A stretch of DNA of 64,000 nt, taken from assembly GCF_054482595.1 (NCBI RefSeq), contig NZ_CM137008.1, one strand, 5' to 3'. Positions 1 to 20,245 of the stretch are shown here, in pieces. Below the pieces are notes generated by a model. That model searched no databases, was not told where the DNA came from, and saw only the letters and a list, made by a program, of their open reading frames with translations. The translations under genes were made by a program, and so were the position numbers. Within the stretch, counting starts at the first letter, position 1, and each line of letters begins with the position of its first letter.

Positions 1-593
1 CTATTACGCGGATTTTCTCGCTCAGTATTACCACCAACTGGCTGGGCTATATTTTACTGGCAGGGATTATCTTTACCGCAGGCGTGGTGGAGTTGCCGGA
101 CCACTGGTATGTCGATCAAACCACGCTGCGCATTCTCGGCATTGGCTTACTGATGATTATCGCGGTTTATTTGTGGTTTTGCGCTTTCGCGAAGCACCGC
201 CATATGACCATCAAAGGGCAAAAGTTGGTGCTGCCCTCATGGAAATTCGCCCTCGCCCAGATGCTGATTTCCAGCGTTAACTGGATGGTCATGGGAGCGA
301 TTATCTGGCTGTTACTTGGTCAAAGCGTGAACTATTTCTTTGTACTGGGCGTGTTGCTGGTTAGTAGTATTGCCGGCGTCATCGTGCATATTCCGGCGGG
401 GATTGGTGTGCTGGAAGCGGTATTTATCGCATTACTGGCAGGGGAGCATACATCCAAAGGCACAATTATCGCCGCCCTGCTCGCTTACCGTGTGCTGTAT
501 TACTTTATCCCGCTGCTGCTGGCGCTGATCTGTTACCTGTTGCTGGAAAGCCAGGCGAAGAAGCTACGGGCGAAAAATGAAGCGGCGATGTGA
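1..593 (+). CDS. ybhN: Inner membrane protein YbhN, C-terminal part (5' end upstream of window)
   Basis: Open frame from window edge to stop at 591-593; multi-TM hydrophobic translation; assignment by conserved K-12 gene order next to ybhM-ybhL-moa. Confidence 0.6.
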   Translation, partial: ITRIFSLSITTNWLGYILLAGIIFTAGVVELPDHWYVDQTTLRILGIGLLMIIAVYLWFCAFAKHRHMTIKGQKLVLPSWKFALAQMLISSVNWMVMGAIIWLLLGQSVNYFFVLGVLLVSSIAGVIVHIPAGIGVLEAVFIALLAGEHTSKGTIIAALLAYRVLYYFIPLLLALICYLLLESQAKKLRAKNEAAM

Positions 594-14226: not shown

Positions 14227-14703
14227 ATGAAACTCATCAGTAACGATCTGCGCGATGGCGATAAGTTGCCGCATCGTCATGTCTTTAACGGCATGGGTTA
14301 CGATGGCGATAATATTTCACCGCATCTGGCGTGGGATGATGTTCCTGCGGGAACGAAAAGTTTTGTTGTCACATGCTACGACCCGGATGCGCCAACCGGC
14401 TCCGGCTGGTGGCACTGGGTAGTTGTTAATTTACCCGCTGATACCCGCGTATTACCGCAAGGGTTTGGCTCTGGTCTGGTAGCAATGCCAGACGGCGTTT
14501 TGCAGACGCGTACCGATTTTGGTAAAACCGGATACGATGGCGCAGCGCCACCGAAAGGCGAAACCCATCGCTACATTTTTACCGTTCACGCGCTGGATGT
14601 AGAGCGTATTGATGTCGATGAAGGAGCCAGCGGCGCGATGGTCGGGTTTAACGTTCATTTCCACTCTCTGGCAAGCGCATCGATTACCGCGATGTTTAGT
14701 TAA
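14227..14703 (+). CDS. ybhB: PEBP/kinase-inhibitor family protein YbhB (158 aa)
   Basis: 158-aa ORF downstream of bioA; last host gene before the prophage junction. Confidence 0.85.
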   Translation: MKLISNDLRDGDKLPHRHVFNGMGYDGDNISPHLAWDDVPAGTKSFVVTCYDPDAPTGSGWWHWVVVNLPADTRVLPQGFGSGLVAMPDGVLQTRTDFGKTGYDGAAPPKGETHRYIFTVHALDVERIDVDEGASGAMVGFNVHFHSLASASITAMFS

Positions 14704-14793
14704 TCACTCTGCCAGATGGCGCAATGCTATCTGGTATCACTTAAAGGTATTAAAAACAACTTTTTGTCTTTTTACCTTCCCGTTTCGCTCAAG

Positions 14794-14808
14794 TTAGTAT
14801 AAAAAAGT
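14794..14808. other. attR core (P-O-B' junction, tailspike side)
   Basis: ttagtataaaaaagt = reverse complement of lambda core GCTTTTTTATACTAA with one substitution at the phage-side end; preceded by host cgctcaag, followed by lambda-P-arm-like sequence. Confidence 0.85.
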
Positions 14809-14954
14809 TGAATGTGAAACGGTAAAAACAATTAATATCAACAGCTTATAATTGATTCAGTCTAAAAAATAGACTGCATAATGCTACAAAACACAACATA
14901 TCCAGTCACTATGAATCAACCACTTAGATGGTATTAGTGACCTGTAACAGAGCA

Positions 14955-14996
14955 TTAGCGCAAGGTGATTTTTTTGTCTTCTTGCGCTAATTTTTT
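14955..14996. terminator. lambda sib/tI-like hairpin in residual b-region
   Basis: ttagcgcaag N20 cttgcgctaa followed by tttttt; resembles lambda sib retroregulator region as recalled. Confidence 0.5.
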
Positions 14997-15340
14997 GTCA
15001 ACACACTGGGTTAGCTGAATTTACAACCATGCTCAGTATCTCGATAAGCGCAGAGAAATGATGCAGTGGTGGGCGGATTGGCTTGATGAAAAAGTAGAGT
15101 GAGCGACCTTAATAACTATCGAATAGCACAAAGCCTTGCAGTCCAGTACAAAGCTTTGTGTGCATCAGTTTTGTCTTATCAACCACAGCAAGTCATCGAT
15201 CGATTGAGACTTGGATGATAGACTTCATGTCTTTGATTATTAGCTGACAAAAGAAATGTTAAAGCTATTTGCAAAGTACACCTCGATTGGCGTGCTGAAC
15301 ACACTTATACACTGGGTGCAACGGAATCCCAGGCGCACTA

Positions 15341-17266
15341 TTATTTAGCTTGAACCGTTAATATTTTCCCTCCAGAATATTCTGTAAGATTACTTATTTC
15401 ATTAGCCAAAAGCGCTTTGAACATATTTCGGTCCTGCCCGAAAACAACGCCAGAAAAGAAAGTCCCAAGGTTGCGGTAGCCGCCTACGGTCGGCATACGG
15501 ATAAACAGGTAAGACGTACCCTCGTACGTGCCGGTAAACCAAGCATCATAATCTGTGAGAGATTGGTTATCACAGTGAGCAGCTCTAACTAATTTTGCGC
15601 GGGTAGAGATATTGCTGCCTACTGTATTAAGGTCATACGCACCCGATATAGGATTAAGATCTTCCCCGCTGCGTAATGTATAAATAGTCCCAATGCACCC
15701 TCGTTTCCCATACTGACCACCAACGATACGATAATACGGCCCAGCAGACTGGTCTGGATTCGGCAACGCCATATCCCGACACATAGTGGTACTGAACGTT
15801 GGTATGGTTGCCAGCCCACCAAGATTACCTAATGTAGCGAAAGTTGCAGTTTTCGTGTCGTATGAATTCCTTTGAGGCCACGACGTTTCAAACTTATTGC
15901 TGTACACGATTTCTAACTTAGCACCGTTAGTTAAACGGGCCATCGCGCCATTGAAAGTAGTGGTCGAGCTGGCAATTAGTTGCTTAATACTTACTTTAGC
16001 ATAACCAGATAGGTCAAACATGTAGCTACCTGCAGCCTGCGTTTGATCGTACAGATGTATATTATCTATCTGTAAGTTAGCCCCGGTGCCCTTAATAATC
16101 GTACCGCTGTTCTGACGTGAAGGTTGTTCACAACCTAAAGACGAAATGCTGTACGAGCCTGCGTTAAAAATATACGGAATCCCAGCGCAATCGTCAGCGG
16201 CTAATGGACCAATTTCACAATATGAGCCCGTCAACTCAAAGGCACAGTAGTTTGTTTTAAACGCGTTACATTGGGATACTACGTAGCTTGCCCCCCCATG
16301 TATATGAATACCACCATATATCCCGGTAGCGTCGGAACCTTGGACAACGATTTCGCGGATGGAAACACCAACGAAGGTATTGCCGCCAAAATACATCCCC
16401 CATTTTTGCGCAAGGATAAACAGATCACTAAATTCCTGGTATACGGCGGTATTGGGAGTGTAATACCCGTAACTATCCGTTGTATCGTCCAGGATGCGTA
16501 GTCCACGGACAACATTACCACGTTTACCCTTGTTATAGAAAACAGCGTTAATATCCTGAGTTCCTACCGCCGTTTTGCGAATAATGGATGCACGACCCTC
16601 CCCGACGAATCGGCTACCATTTGGTTGATAGTATTTCTCATTGTAAACATCTTCCAAATCGTAAAGAAGAATAGAGTCCGATATCTCATATTCGCCAGCG
16701 GGCACAAATATAGTTTTTCCCAGTTGCGCGGATACAAGCGATGCTCGATTAAAAGAGAGCGTCCAATCTGGATCTGAATCCAGTTTAAAGTCCAGTACAG
16801 AAATAGTTTCAGAGTTTTTCTGGTGTTGCGTTCGATTTACGGCCCCGTTAAATGGTTGCCGAACAGCTATCTTCGCATCATTAACAATAGTAGGACCATA
16901 GTCTTGCGCCAACTCTGACCTTAGTTGATCAGGGTCATACTTAAGCACATTCGGAAAATAGAACTGCTGTGCACCATATGCATCATAAACAGCCATAGAA
17001 TGGCCTTGCACAGTTACGAACTTGGCAATCTGTCCGTTATATACAGGATACCCGCCAGCGTTAATGATGATTGGCTGTGCAACAGGAACGTGAGAACCGT
17101 CTTCATTCTCTACATAAACCTGAATCTGGTTTTCAGGATTTACCGGGTCAGTGTCAATTTTTCCGATATAAATTTTGCCATTGGCAACCGCTTTAAAAGA
17201 ACGCGCCATAGTGAAGAGTTGCGAAGGCATACTCACTACAACATTGGCATTTATTGAATCTGTCAT
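15341..17266 (-). CDS. P22-type tailspike (641 aa): conserved N-terminal head-binding domain, divergent receptor-binding body
   Basis: N-terminus [62 protein letters not shown]... closely parallels the P22 gp9 head-binding domain (recalled); remainder is beta-helix-like with different sequence. Confidence 0.85.
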
Positions 17267-17465
17267 TTAATTTGCTCCAGATACAAGGAATCGCCGCAGC
17301 ATGGCTACGGTTGATGTTTGTTGCATACCGAAATGGTACGATTGTTGATTTGTACAGTAGGTTTTACGATGCCATTCCACCCATTTGGTGAGGCATTGAT
17401 GATGTACAGCAAATACGATGAGGCGCAGTTCCACTTCGGCATAATGCCATATTTTTTCTTTGCCA

Positions 17466-18194
17466 TTATGCAACATTACTCCCATGAATCAGGTGTTGTA
17501 GTGCTTTAACACCTTCCTCATTGTAGCGGAATGCTTCCACCTGTTTGCTGGAATGCGCAGATTTATCCAGGAAGAACTTCCCGTACTGCTCAGTTTTGAG
17601 GTTGTTTGCGTTAGCAATGCGACCAATCTTGTTGGCCGTTACCCCAAGCTGCTCTGCAACCTCCCCTGCTGAGTAGTAATGCTCTTCTATTGCTGGAAGA
17701 GGTATTGCATTAAAACCAACGATCGGGTTGATTATGCTTGCTGCCGCAGTCTGCTTTGCTTCCGGCGCAAGATTTGGCATCAAATCGAACAGATTGGTAA
17801 CAGCTTCAACCGTCATTTTCAATGTTCGCGCCTGGCGATACTCAACAAGTCCACTAGACGATTTACCGCTTTTAATGTGCGCTTCTTGCATACTTTCAAG
17901 TTGGTCTACAAGTGAGCGGCGAACAGCTTTAGATTCACGAGCAGCCACTCGAAGGGCTTGCTTAATTGACATAACAACTTTTTCAGAAGTTGTCTTGTTT
18001 GATTTTTGAACTACGAAAATTTCGTAGTGCTCACCTTCAAGTTCATCCTTAATGCGTGCAATAAAGTCGTTATTGCGGACTTCTTTTTCCCCGCACTGTC
18101 TACGAGCATGATTGACCATCTCTAACAGGTACTGGCTATCAATGGTTTTATCCGTGACAACGGATCCGATGTTTGCTACATTCTTAAAAGTCAT
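17466..18194 (-). CDS. Putative antirepressor-like/regulatory protein (243 aa)
   Basis: ORF 17466..18245 trimmed to ATG at 18194 with AAGGA RBS; C-terminal region loosely resembles KilA-C/ORF6C-type antirepressor tails; sits between ant and tailspike. Confidence 0.35.
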   Translation of the reverse strand: MTFKNVANIGSVVTDKTIDSQYLLEMVNHARRQCGEKEVRNNDFIARIKDELEGEHYEIFVVQKSNKTTSEKVVMSIKQALRVAARESKAVRRSLVDQLESMQEAHIKSGKSSSGLVEYRQARTLKMTVEAVTNLFDLMPNLAPEAKQTAAASIINPIVGFNAIPLPAIEEHYYSAGEVAEQLGVTANKIGRIANANNLKTEQYGKFFLDKSAHSSKQVEAFRYNEEGVKALQHLIHGSNVA

Positions 18195-18282
18195 TAGGCA
18201 TTCCTTATGTGGTAGTAAGGGTGTGACATAGGCCGCCAGCAGCACACTGGCGGTTTTCTTTTTGCGCCGTCCGGCGCACCAA

Positions 18283-18909
18283 TCAATGAATCCATTCCTC
18301 GCCGCGCAGTTTTGCCAGCATTGGCTGAGCGTTCTTTACGACAAAATTGTTGGTATCAAGATTCTTCATTTCACGAAGAAGTGATTTCTTGGTTTCTTCT
18401 GACATGTAGCGAGTCTCATATGCAATATCGTAAATCCTTCCTGAAAGCTCAGAACCAATTTGCTTCATTCCTGGGTAGATGTGTTTGCACATTTGTTGAC
18501 TCTTCTCCATCCACAATTGTAAGTAGCAGAGATTAACCAGTTCTTCGTCAGTAAACTGTTTTGCAATCGGTGAGCATTCTGCCTGCCGATCCAAAATATC
18601 CAGCACCCAGCGGCGGAACTCTTTGGCTACCTGAGTGCGAGCAAACATCGCGATTAGGTGGGCACCGCGTAGTGAGAAAACACGCACTTTTTTGCGATAA
18701 TTTCCTGAGGTACTCACTTCGAGTACCTGAGTCATTCCGGCGCTAAACTCATCGCTATACTTGTTATAAATCATTGTTACTGCACGACTATTTGCGTATT
18801 TAAGTGCAGATGCAATATTAGATGATGTAAACCAAACACCATGCATATCACGGGTGGGCACCAATTCAACTCCGTGGAAGTTATAATCTGATTTTGCTAC
18901 AATATTCAT
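18283..18909 (-). CDS. ant: Antirepressor with Bro-N domain (about 208 aa; start uncertain)
   Basis: FHGVELVPTRDMHGVWFTSSNIASALKY...FSLRGAHLIAMFARTQVAKEFRRWVLDIL is Bro-N-like; ATG at 18909 has AAGGAA RBS; longer frame to 18993 would overlap arc. Confidence 0.6.
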   Translation of the reverse strand: MNIVAKSDYNFHGVELVPTRDMHGVWFTSSNIASALKYANSRAVTMIYNKYSDEFSAGMTQVLEVSTSGNYRKKVRVFSLRGAHLIAMFARTQVAKEFRRWVLDILDRQAECSPIAKQFTDEELVNLCYLQLWMEKSQQMCKHIYPGMKQIGSELSGRIYDIAYETRYMSEETKKSLLREMKNLDTNNFVVKNAQPMLAKLRGEEWIH

Positions 18910-18982
18910 GTTAGTTTCCTTGCATACGGTTACTGACATAGAGGCCCGGTTTGTGTTCACGCACTGCCGGGCTTCACTATTT

Positions 18983-19156
18983 TTACTGGGCATTAGCTCT
19001 TTCCTCTCTCAGGCTTTTAGCCAGTCGCTGCACAATCGCAGAGTTGATAGAAATTCCATCCATTTCAGCAACACGTCTAATCTCCTCCTTCATTCGCGCT
19101 GGCAAACGAAGCTGGAAACTTTGACTTTTACGACCTGTGTAAAGCACATCTTTCAT
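18983..19156 (-). CDS. arc: Arc-like ribbon-helix-helix repressor (57 aa)
   Basis: MKDVLYTGRKSQSFQLRLPARMKEEIRRVAEMDGISINSAIVQRL resembles P22 Arc (MetJ/Arc RHH fold). Confidence 0.7.
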   Translation of the reverse strand: MKDVLYTGRKSQSFQLRLPARMKEEIRRVAEMDGISINSAIVQRLAKSLREERANAQ

Positions 19157-19183
19157 AAGTAATCCTCCCACAATGATACCAAC

Positions 19184-19199
19184 TTGGTTCTAGAACCAA
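19184..19199. promoter_or_regulatory. immI operator candidate: perfect 16-bp palindrome
   Basis: TTGGTTCTAGAACCAA in the divergent arc-mnt intergenic region. Confidence 0.6.
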
Positions 19200-19267
19200 T
19201 TTAACACCATTTATTTTGATGTCAAGTTGGTGCTATTGTTTAGCGAACATCTTTACGTTGAGGTCAT

Positions 19268-19588
19268 ATGAGCAAGTTCCCTAGTCATGAAATGGATAGG
19301 TTCAATATCAGGCTTCCTGCAGGAATGCGGGATGCTATAGCTGAACGAGCCAAACGTAACGGCAGATCAATGAACTCAGAGATTGTTCAGATACTGGAAG
19401 ATGCCTTGAATGCAGAAAATACACTCGGGGAAATAGCAGATAAAATCAACAGCGTCTCGGTTCCGCTAAATGTTGATGCGCTAGTTCAACTTCAAGCCCA
19501 GGTTATCGCCATGCAAAAAGAAATACAGGAAAAGTTCAGAGAGCAGAACGAAAAGTTGAGAGAACTGCTAAACAAAAAAACCACCTGA
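19268..19588 (+). CDS. mnt: Mnt-like repressor (106 aa)
   Basis: N-terminal RHH motif FNIRLPAGMRDAIAERAKRNGRSMNSEIVQILEDAL and C-terminal coiled coil ending KKTT, as in P22 Mnt (recalled). Confidence 0.75.
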   Translation: MSKFPSHEMDRFNIRLPAGMRDAIAERAKRNGRSMNSEIVQILEDALNAENTLGEIADKINSVSVPLNVDALVQLQAQVIAMQKEIQEKFREQNEKLRELLNKKTT

Positions 19589-19612
19589 CGGTGGGTTAAT
19601 TTTTGCCTTTTT
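19579..19612 (+). terminator. Rho-independent terminator after mnt
   Basis: aaaccacc tgac ggtgggtt followed by T-rich tract. Confidence 0.6.
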
Positions 19613-19686
19613 TGGACCATATTGACTACTCATAAAATGAGATCAATATTTAATCGCCCAATAACGGGTGCATGTTGAGGTATATC

Positions 19687-19866
19687 ATGGCGAAAAAACC
19701 AGGTGAAAACACAGGAAAAAACGGCGGAATATACCAAGAAGTTGGCCCGCGCGGAGGTAAGAAAGACAATTTTGCCACCGTCAAGGACAACGAAAGGCTT
19801 CCGCCAACAACAAAGCCAGGTCATGGCTGGGTATTAGATAAGCGAACTCCAGACAGCAAAAAGTAA
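19687..19866 (+). CDS. Small Gly/Lys-rich protein, YjzC-like (59 aa)
   Basis: ATG at 19687 with GAGG 6 nt upstream; MAKKPGENTGKNGGIYQEVGPRGG...LPPTTKPGHGWVL resembles YjzC-family small proteins (recalled, low certainty). Confidence 0.45.
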   Translation: MAKKPGENTGKNGGIYQEVGPRGGKKDNFATVKDNERLPPTTKPGHGWVLDKRTPDSKK

Positions 19867-19879
19867 TAATCAAGCCGGG

Positions 19880-20245
19880 TCACTCCGGCTTTTTGATATG
19901 TCGCTCGCAGAACTCAACAAGCCTGCTCATTAAGTAGCAGTAAGTCTCGTTGGCTCTTCCTGGTTCAACATCAACGCCGACCCTTGAGCAGATATCGAAT
20001 GCCATGTGAGCGCACTCATGGGCAATAGTAGATAGTTTGCCATTGAACACACCTATCACATGCAAAACACCATTCTCGCTGCTCATTGTATGAGACGCTC
20101 CGTTGGCATCCGAGTCCTGCACGTCCACGCCAAGTTTTTGATGCAGGCGTTGCCATTCTGGAAAGTCTCTGCAAAACACAATTGTACCGCTCTCAAAGAG
20201 CGGAACGAGCATTTTTGGTACGTTTCCAATGTTAACTTTTTTCAT
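19880..20245 (-). CDS. Hypothetical 121-aa protein with HExxH motif (possible minimal zinc metallopeptidase)
   Basis: ATG at 20245 with AGGA RBS; translation contains IAHECAHMAFD (HExxH) and a downstream Glu; no TM segment; stop lies inside hairpin 19871..19893. Confidence 0.5.
   Translation of the reverse strand: MKKVNIGNVPKMLVPLFESGTIVFCRDFPEWQRLHQKLGVDVQDSDANGASHTMSSENGVLHVIGVFNGKLSTIAHECAHMAFDICSRVGVDVEPGRANETYCYLMSRLVEFCERHIKKPE

Follow-up and report, generated by a model that had tools for sequence, protein, structure and literature searches.

ORF242, an antirepressor-like gene behind ant in a P22-type immunity I cassette, and a predicted antisense RNA over its start

Gene content of the immunity I region

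P22 immunity I (immI) is a textbook example of layered control, in which two repressors and an antisense RNA act on one antirepressor. A cassette of this type is found in the window, by which we mean the whole 64,000-nucleotide stretch of contig NZ_CM137008.1 (RefSeq assembly GCF_054482595.1) that was analysed, within a P22-like prophage that adjoins ybhB-bioA, which we take to be the region of the lambda attachment site; about 640 bp (14703..15341) lie between ybhB and the stop of the tailspike gene. The features of the cassette are as follows, except for the antisense unit at the start of ORF242, which is listed further below.

15341..17266, minus strand: tailspike gene with a P22-type head-binding N domain, at the downstream end of the ant moron
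17305..17466, minus strand: chimeric 53-aa ORF, whose first 10 codons equal those of orf73 (PHROG 4977) and whose remainder is out-of-frame sequence of the mnt2 region
17369..17434, plus strand: mnt2 remnant, the first 22 codons of a second Mnt-like gene that is intact in relatives
17466..18194, minus strand: ORF242, 729 nt (242 codons plus stop)
18206..18202, minus strand: Shine-Dalgarno AAGGA of ORF242, 7 nt before the ATG (18194..18192) and kept in immI-type relatives
18283..18909, minus strand: ant, 208 aa, PHROG 245 Ant, immediately upstream of ORF242 and probably in the same operon
18905..18990, plus strand: arc-ant spacer RNA, probable sar counterpart, which lies antisense to the ant RBS and has a T-run and a strong hairpin (fold z -4.8)
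18983..19156, minus strand: arc-like ribbon-helix-helix repressor gene, 57 aa from ATG
19172..19225, minus strand: Pant region, promoter then palindrome TTGGTTCTAGAACCAA, a candidate Mnt operator by analogy with the P22 layout
19225..19198, minus strand: Pant-like promoter TTGACA-16 nt-TAAATT, from a consensus scan
19268..19588, plus strand: mnt-like Arc-family repressor gene, divergent from arc

The cassette shares with P22 immI the divergent orientation of mnt and arc-ant, the Pant-like promoter with its adjacent palindrome, a probable antisense RNA that covers the RBS of ant, and a location between the tailspike gene and gene 16. It differs from P22 by a second regulator gene after ant, accompanied by a second predicted antisense unit, and full-length relatives add orf73 and a second mnt-like gene. 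The preliminary description of this DNA had correctly assigned the upstream ant to the Bro-N type: Pfam identifies Bro-N plus P22_AR_C, unlike the P22_AR_N type. It was likewise right that ant stands directly before the tailspike gene in P22, as the P22 record shows only a terminator followed by gene 9. ORF242 ends in TAATG, in which its stop overlaps the ATG of the orf73-derived ORF.

ORF242 is a genuine protein-coding gene

Behind ant, the preliminary description had reported a second ORF of 243 aa with an AAGGA RBS of its own; both the gene and its RBS were confirmed, with the length corrected to 242 aa. A longer version from an in-frame GTG at 18245 is unlikely, because similarity among homologues is lost altogether upstream of the conserved hairpin at 18233..18253 and because a 100% identical copy carries the 729-nt form in its RefSeq annotation. 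Searches of a collection of 5.8 billion proteins returned 2,099 homologues at E 1e-3 or better, and 936 representatives were matched in a 50%-clustered protein library. Among 5,426 complete E. coli genomes, 75 contain a near-full-length DNA copy; one of these copies is 100% identical and carries a 729-nt CDS annotation. Of 12 homologues compared, nine had unsaturated dS, and for these dN/dS (Nei-Gojobori) ranged from 0.04 to 0.25; ORF242 is under purifying selection and is a genuine protein-coding gene, beyond a chance reading frame.

The opposite case, that ORF242 is a decaying pseudogene or merely the untranslated 3′ end of the ant transcript, is hardly credible. A deletion in the window has cut short the downstream orf73 and mnt2, so the cassette is partly decaying, but the ORF242 frame itself is uninterrupted and agrees at 100% identity with annotated copies from elsewhere, and the good RBS points the same way. 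The untranslated extension, which had been considered when the locus was first described, is effectively refuted by the number of homologues, the E. coli copies and the dN/dS values.

Synonymous divergence was discordant between the N and C halves of the gene in several pairs (L049, L077, L093), for example with a dS of 0.94 in the N half versus 0.08 in the C half, which indicates that ORF242 is itself mosaic, with recombination at the inter-domain linker within the family. A composition profile revealed no GC anomaly across the cassette, the content being uniform.

Transcription of ORF242 and a predicted antisense RNA over its start

The consensus scan found neither a sense-strand terminator nor a consensus promoter between ant and ORF242, and Pant (19225..19198) was the only good sense-strand promoter match. 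Because ORF242 has no such sense promoter or terminator of its own, we infer that it is the third cistron of the Pant operon, co-transcribed from Pant under Mnt/Arc control. It would be transcribed together with arc and ant, and also by late read-through, and would be silent in the lysogen under Mnt.

On the opposite strand, the start of ORF242 is overlain by a predicted antisense unit, which we call sar2.

18154..18182, plus strand: predicted sar2 promoter, GTGACA-17 nt-TACATT with extended -10 TG, inside ORF242 codons 5-14
18189..18263, plus strand: sar2, a predicted sar-like RNA of about 75 nt that is antisense to the RBS and start codon of ORF242, with a 5′ hairpin over the anti-SD
18233..18253 (stem) and 18254..18263 (T-run), plus strand: sar2 intrinsic terminator, from a terminator scan (stem within 18230..18256, then TTTTCTTTTT)

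The promoter scan overall was not enriched over shuffles (4 sites versus 5.1 expected), so the single sar2 promoter match is not significant alone, and the argument is carried by comparative data. Upstream regions of ORF242 fell into 41 distinct variants, 37 of which were of the immI type, and from the latter 31 distinct antisense-RNA sequences were derived. The hairpin and T-run are kept in all 31 of these, with conservation stopping exactly at the T-run, where the sequence joins three or more unrelated upstream genes. Across 19 distinct sequences, pairing in the eight-pair terminator stem is 100%, with two compensatory positions, one changing from GC to AU and the other from CG to AU or GU. 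The -35 element, the 17-nt spacing, the TG and the TAnnnT -10 occur at the same position in 37 of 37 immI-type variants, a conservation to which protein constraint contributes, since the -35 and -10 overlap conserved codons. The N-terminal peptide encoded over the promoter varies (MTFKNVAN..., MLTDNLAV..., MTEVTLAV..., MSEITLAN..., MTSLNLAP...), and the promoter is absent from all four variants that lack the antisense terminator (Stx-type and L091).

A covariance model built on sar2 gave one match in the window, with 92 bits at the sar2 site. Neither the rest of the window nor P22 nor the distant homologue loci contained another copy, and the model left both P22 sar and the arc-ant spacer unmatched; as it misses P22 sar, sar2 is not detectably homologous to sar. 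Conversely, the Rfam sar model RF00262, which scores 97.8 bits on P22, had no match at E 1 or below in 17000..20000, so that neither antisense candidate of the window matches it. The arc-ant spacer candidate, undetected by RF00262, does have local similarity to the P22 sar region. Rfam as a whole assigned neither candidate to a family, and a weak match of its symR model at 18907..18978 was treated as chance. Given the miss at 18905..18990, RF00262 appears too narrow for E. coli P22-like phages.

The likeness of sar2 to P22 sar lies in the arrangement: in both, the promoter sits within the first codons of the target, an RNA of about 70-78 nt covers the RBS, and an intrinsic terminator lies in the upstream spacer. 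In the P22 record, Psar is inside ant at 15097..15125 and sar occupies 15021..15090, ending in a terminator. Judging from this architecture, which is present in the sequence, the predicted sar2 RNA probably works like sar yet stands outside the sar family. It would start in the first codons of ORF242, pair with the AUG and the SD, and end at the intrinsic terminator, and we infer that the predicted RNA thereby serves as a separate throttle on ORF242 translation. Our search of the literature turned up no earlier account of immI with a second sar-like antisense unit that is conserved independently. The conserved predicted sar2 unit is the most interesting result of this analysis and makes the family experimentally tractable; if it is borne out, it would extend the sar paradigm to a duplicated and modular arrangement.

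Distribution of the cassette among phages

The interval from gene 16 to gene 9 has been described as a hypervariable "ant moron", of which sixteen genomes contain ten types (PMC2629481). For a view of ORF242 in this setting, reference proteins were mapped onto 80 IMG/VR loci that carry 69-100% identical ORF242 homologues and span about 3.5 kb on either side. The commonest layout was Mnt(-) Arc(+) Ant(+) ORF242(+) orf73(+) Mnt2(-) tailspike(+). In these loci ORF242 nearly always comes directly after an Ant gene, and does so across three Ant types: Bro-N plus P22_AR_C (the window and JEP4), Bro-N with another C domain (L048), and the P22_AR_N type (L078). The preliminary description had spoken of an extra gene inserted between ant and the tailspike gene and had proposed comparing immI regions. 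P22 indeed has no gene there, but "inserted" is misleading given the conserved ant-ORF242 linkage, and the comparison found in ORF242 a widespread part of the cassette, not a one-off insertion. From gene order and sequence, ORF242 is a regular component of a mobile P22 immunity-I variant, mnt / Pant-arc-ant-ORF242-(orf73) / (mnt2). A common natural immI variant in E. coli, Salmonella and Klebsiella prophages has a second regulator gene of the same broad class as ant, apparently accompanied by a sar-like RNA specific to it.

The block is not confined to P22-like genomes. In a Klebsiella contig (L010 2592..5052), mnt-arc-ant-ORF242 and a small ORF lie in a siphovirus-type prophage, with tail chaperone-like genes on one side and the tape-measure gene on the other; the presence of the whole block in a siphovirus tail cluster indicates that the immI variant moves as a unit between phage morphotypes. 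In JEP4-type loci (L001 1892..2806), the divergent guard consists of an HTH plus S24-peptidase repressor and a 57-aa ParD/RHH-like protein, which replace Mnt/Arc. This suggests a LexA/CI-like, potentially self-cleaving guard and an SOS-inducible version of the module. Stx2a phages have the ORF242 homologue near int, upstream of an Ant gene; it follows a different hairpin there and lacks the sar2 promoter. More distant homologues are located in nin or int-proximal early regions without sar2 or an Arc/Mnt guard, or behind Arc- or CI-like regulators.

Two IMG/VR loci (L021 and L083) have two tandem immI units before the tailspike gene, with Ant-ORF242-orf73-mnt2/mnt followed by mnt-arc-ant. On the strength of these tandem units, the lone mnt2 of most loci may be the remnant of a second cassette.

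Family, modules and fold of the ORF242 protein

Full-protein scans produced no significant Pfam or NCBIfam match for ORF242. The N module had no match to Pfam PF02498, PF04383 or PF10543 (Bro-N, KilA-N, ORF6N), and the protein had none to Phage_pRha (PF09669), to ANT (PF03374), or to P22_AR_N and P22_AR_C (PF10547 and PF10548), for which the hhalign probabilities were 0.5% and 0.1%. The earlier statement that the N-terminal part has no recognisable Bro-N or Rha domain was therefore borne out. Searches of PDB sequences, both with the protein alone and with a profile, returned nothing better than insignificant HTH-like matches. By comparison, ORF242 matches the profile of PHROG 1726, "anti-repressor", at full length (E 9.4e-101; residues 1-242 on profile positions 1-264 of 264), and its identity to phage proteins of PHROG 1726 (Stx2a_F451 gp08, JEP4 gp17 "KilA", KP12 "KilA", PhiR12_3 "Roi") is 60-99%. 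The profile search proposed in the preliminary description thus returned an empty result in Pfam, a full-length PHROG match and, as detailed below, weak hhalign links to Rha and KilAC.

Relatives of ORF242 are labelled in GenBank as KilA (JEP4, KP12), anti-repressor (Stx2a_F451, Lyz12581Vzw), Roi (PhiR12_3) or hypothetical. We found no experimentally tested member of the ORF242/PHROG 1726 family, and "KilA", "Roi" and "anti-repressor" are transferred annotations; the clear homology to a characterised antirepressor that the preliminary description had contemplated did not emerge, the homologues being only annotated under these three names. ORF242 thus belongs to a catalogued but uncharacterised family in a common arrangement, and a family of more than 2,000 members with neither a Pfam model nor a tested member is a practical place to look for a new specificity of antirepressor or regulator.

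An AlphaFold2 model (pLDDT 80.6) has two domains joined by a flexible linker at residues 109-114, and the protein can be divided accordingly.

Residues ~15-108: N module, remotely Rha-like
Residues ~116-237: C module, ending in a MerR/excisionase-type winged HTH at ~170-236

The N-terminal region of about 130 residues that had been singled out earlier is therefore a distinct module, but of about 110 residues. Its alignment to Rha reached an hhalign probability of 54% (P 1.3e-4; 89 columns over residues 1-110), a weak match to a profile of four sequences, and other N-domain types reached 1.1% or less. The C domain is modelled as a MerR/excisionase-type winged HTH with a conserved basic surface, and this winged HTH matched KilAC weakly, with an hhalign probability of 28% (P 6e-4). 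The best fold matches (Foldseek, BFVD viral models) were full-length "antirepressor", "KilAC" and "KilA" proteins at E 5e-10 to 1e-5, with a "Rha family" protein further down the list.

Both modules recur in other proteins. The C module (residues ~110-240) is found elsewhere behind Bro-N, Phage_pRha, ORF6N, KilA-N and P22_AR_N, so that it takes the position of KilAC/ANT behind interchangeable N-terminal modules. Among proteins that match only residues ~1-110, three of 10 have KilAC/ANT behind the match and the other seven have no significant Pfam C-domain. As the modules recur beside canonical antirepressor domains, each half fills a slot in an antirepressor-like domain-shuffling repertoire, and by its sequence relationships ORF242 would be a two-module phage regulator of the Ant/Rha/KilA ("antirepressor-like") class.

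This modular make-up bears on the suggestion, also made when the locus was first described, that ORF242 is unrelated cargo that uses the immI transcript; such cargo could be a moron for defence, exclusion or anti-defence. The gene 16-gene 9 interval is a known moron hot spot (PMC2629481) and the N-terminal module has no assigned function, as such cargo would allow. Both modules, however, come from the shuffled antirepressor-class repertoire, ORF242 is linked to ant in several unrelated phage backbones, and there is no defence-family match beyond a weak HTH: PADLOC made no defence assignment and reported only a weak HTH match to mad1 (E 0.0023). Unrelated cargo is therefore disfavoured, and we consider it very improbable.

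Proposed function of ORF242

In our preferred reading, to which we assign a probability of about 55%, ORF242 is an Ant-class, sRNA-gated regulator of immI, most likely a second antirepressor-type switch protein. The preliminary description had listed a second antirepressor among its possibilities, and family (PHROG 1726), module architecture, position after ant and the predicted sar-like unit all speak for it. The protein would be a second trans-acting switch that favours lytic development, and would thus have a pro-lytic, anti-immunity role. Dedicated repressors and a private sRNA argue that unscheduled ORF242 expression would be harmful to lysogeny, as for Ant. Two routes can be envisaged: the protein could bind a CI/C2-type repressor in classic antirepression, possibly with a specificity other than that of the neighbouring Ant, or its winged-HTH C domain could act on DNA. 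In the model, the winged-HTH C domain with its basic surface is no less consistent with DNA binding than with repressor binding.

The second route shades into a separate explanation, in which ORF242 is a sequence-specific DNA-binding regulator, a Roi/Rha-like lytic-growth factor that tunes phage or host transcription, with the tailspike/late region and the cassette among the possible targets. HK022 Roi and Rha plus KilAC proteins share with ORF242 the plan of a winged-helix-like module at the N terminus and a winged HTH at the C terminus, joined by a helical linker. Roi differs in being a nin-region gene, not an immI gene, and in having no detectable pairwise sequence similarity to ORF242: the BLASTP alignment to HK022 Roi (E 0.13 over 45 residues) was out of register, and we rejected ORF242 as a Roi homologue. 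No candidate binding site was identified, the winged HTH domains of KilAC proteins also make protein contacts, and the place behind ant together with the tight double control better fits an anti-immunity function. We therefore regard a purely DNA-binding role as rather unlikely.

A host-directed function has its own precedents. Listeria phage AriS is a two-domain "putative anti-repressor" with an exchangeable N domain (AntA/B, Bro-N, pRha) before a conserved C domain (PMC9043618), and in this it resembles ORF242. In Listeria phages, C domains of the KilAC type, as in AriS, act as SOS inhibitors (PMC9043618), and growth inhibition of E. coli has been shown for the KilA-C domain of phi11 Gp07 (PMC5944126). 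With relatives annotated as KilA, and with layered repression of the kind that is typical of toxic prophage genes, ORF242 could be a KilA/AriS-type effector of division or growth arrest, or of RecA/SOS damping, kept off by Mnt and the antisense RNA as toxic. Against this, the C domain of AriS is a bona fide Pfam ANT/KilAC domain, whereas ORF242 has no Pfam ANT match and its C domain is only remotely KilAC-like at the 28% given above. Stx and nin-region relatives are found in ordinary early operons without a special guard, and there was no PADLOC or toxin-family match. A host-directed effector thus seems improbable to us, well behind the antirepressor-type switch protein as an account of the locus.

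The one experimentally studied Ant of an Stx phage that we found is Phi24B Ant, which shares with P22 Ant the C-terminal domain P22_AR_C (PMC3064807). The experiments on it were judged not applicable to ORF242, as Phi24B Ant, sharing P22_AR_C, is like the neighbouring ant and stands outside the ORF242 family.

A broader view of the same components is possible, and we put it forward tentatively as a doubtful idea: ORF242 and its private antisense RNA may form a self-contained mobile "second switch" that recombines behind any ant type, with a product that, unlike a classic Ant, does not bind a repressor but is a winged-HTH DNA-binding or host-directed regulator and has a target distinct from that of Ant. 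Possible targets would then be cross-induction of heteroimmune prophages, tailspike/late expression or SOS modulation. If this were true, many enterobacterial P22-like and siphoviral prophages would have a two-channel, double-sRNA-gated anti-immunity system.

Deletion downstream of ORF242 and other observations

Compared with the copy in E. coli SBF22, whose ORF242 is 100% identical, the window has lost about 430 bp in a clean deletion that is joined near 17436/17437 (for comparison, L006 4729..5252). The deletion takes away most of orf73 (PHROG 4977), a bidirectional terminator and three quarters of mnt2. It gave rise to the chimeric 53-aa ORF at 17305..17466, and as a result of it the presumed mnt2 promoter aims antisense through ORF242 toward the sar2 terminator.

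Between mnt and the gene 16 homologue lie two more small genes, one at 19672..19866 on the plus strand (PHROG 3202) and one at 19880..20245 on the minus strand (PHROG 1365), as additional ant-moron cargo. At the tailspike-side end, some relatives have GtrA or acyltransferase genes, or intS, nearby.

A 38-bp fragment of the coding sequence of the ORF242 N module (ORF242 nt 155..192) is present, at 95-100% identity, in unannotated DNA of about 280 complete E. coli genomes. At the one locus examined (L007 2491..2600, E. coli F5656C1), the fragment is flanked by a primase-helicase-type region on one side and a "phage DNA ejection protein" gene on the other, and a degraded ORF242 remnant spanning residues 49-88 was recognised there by tblastn.
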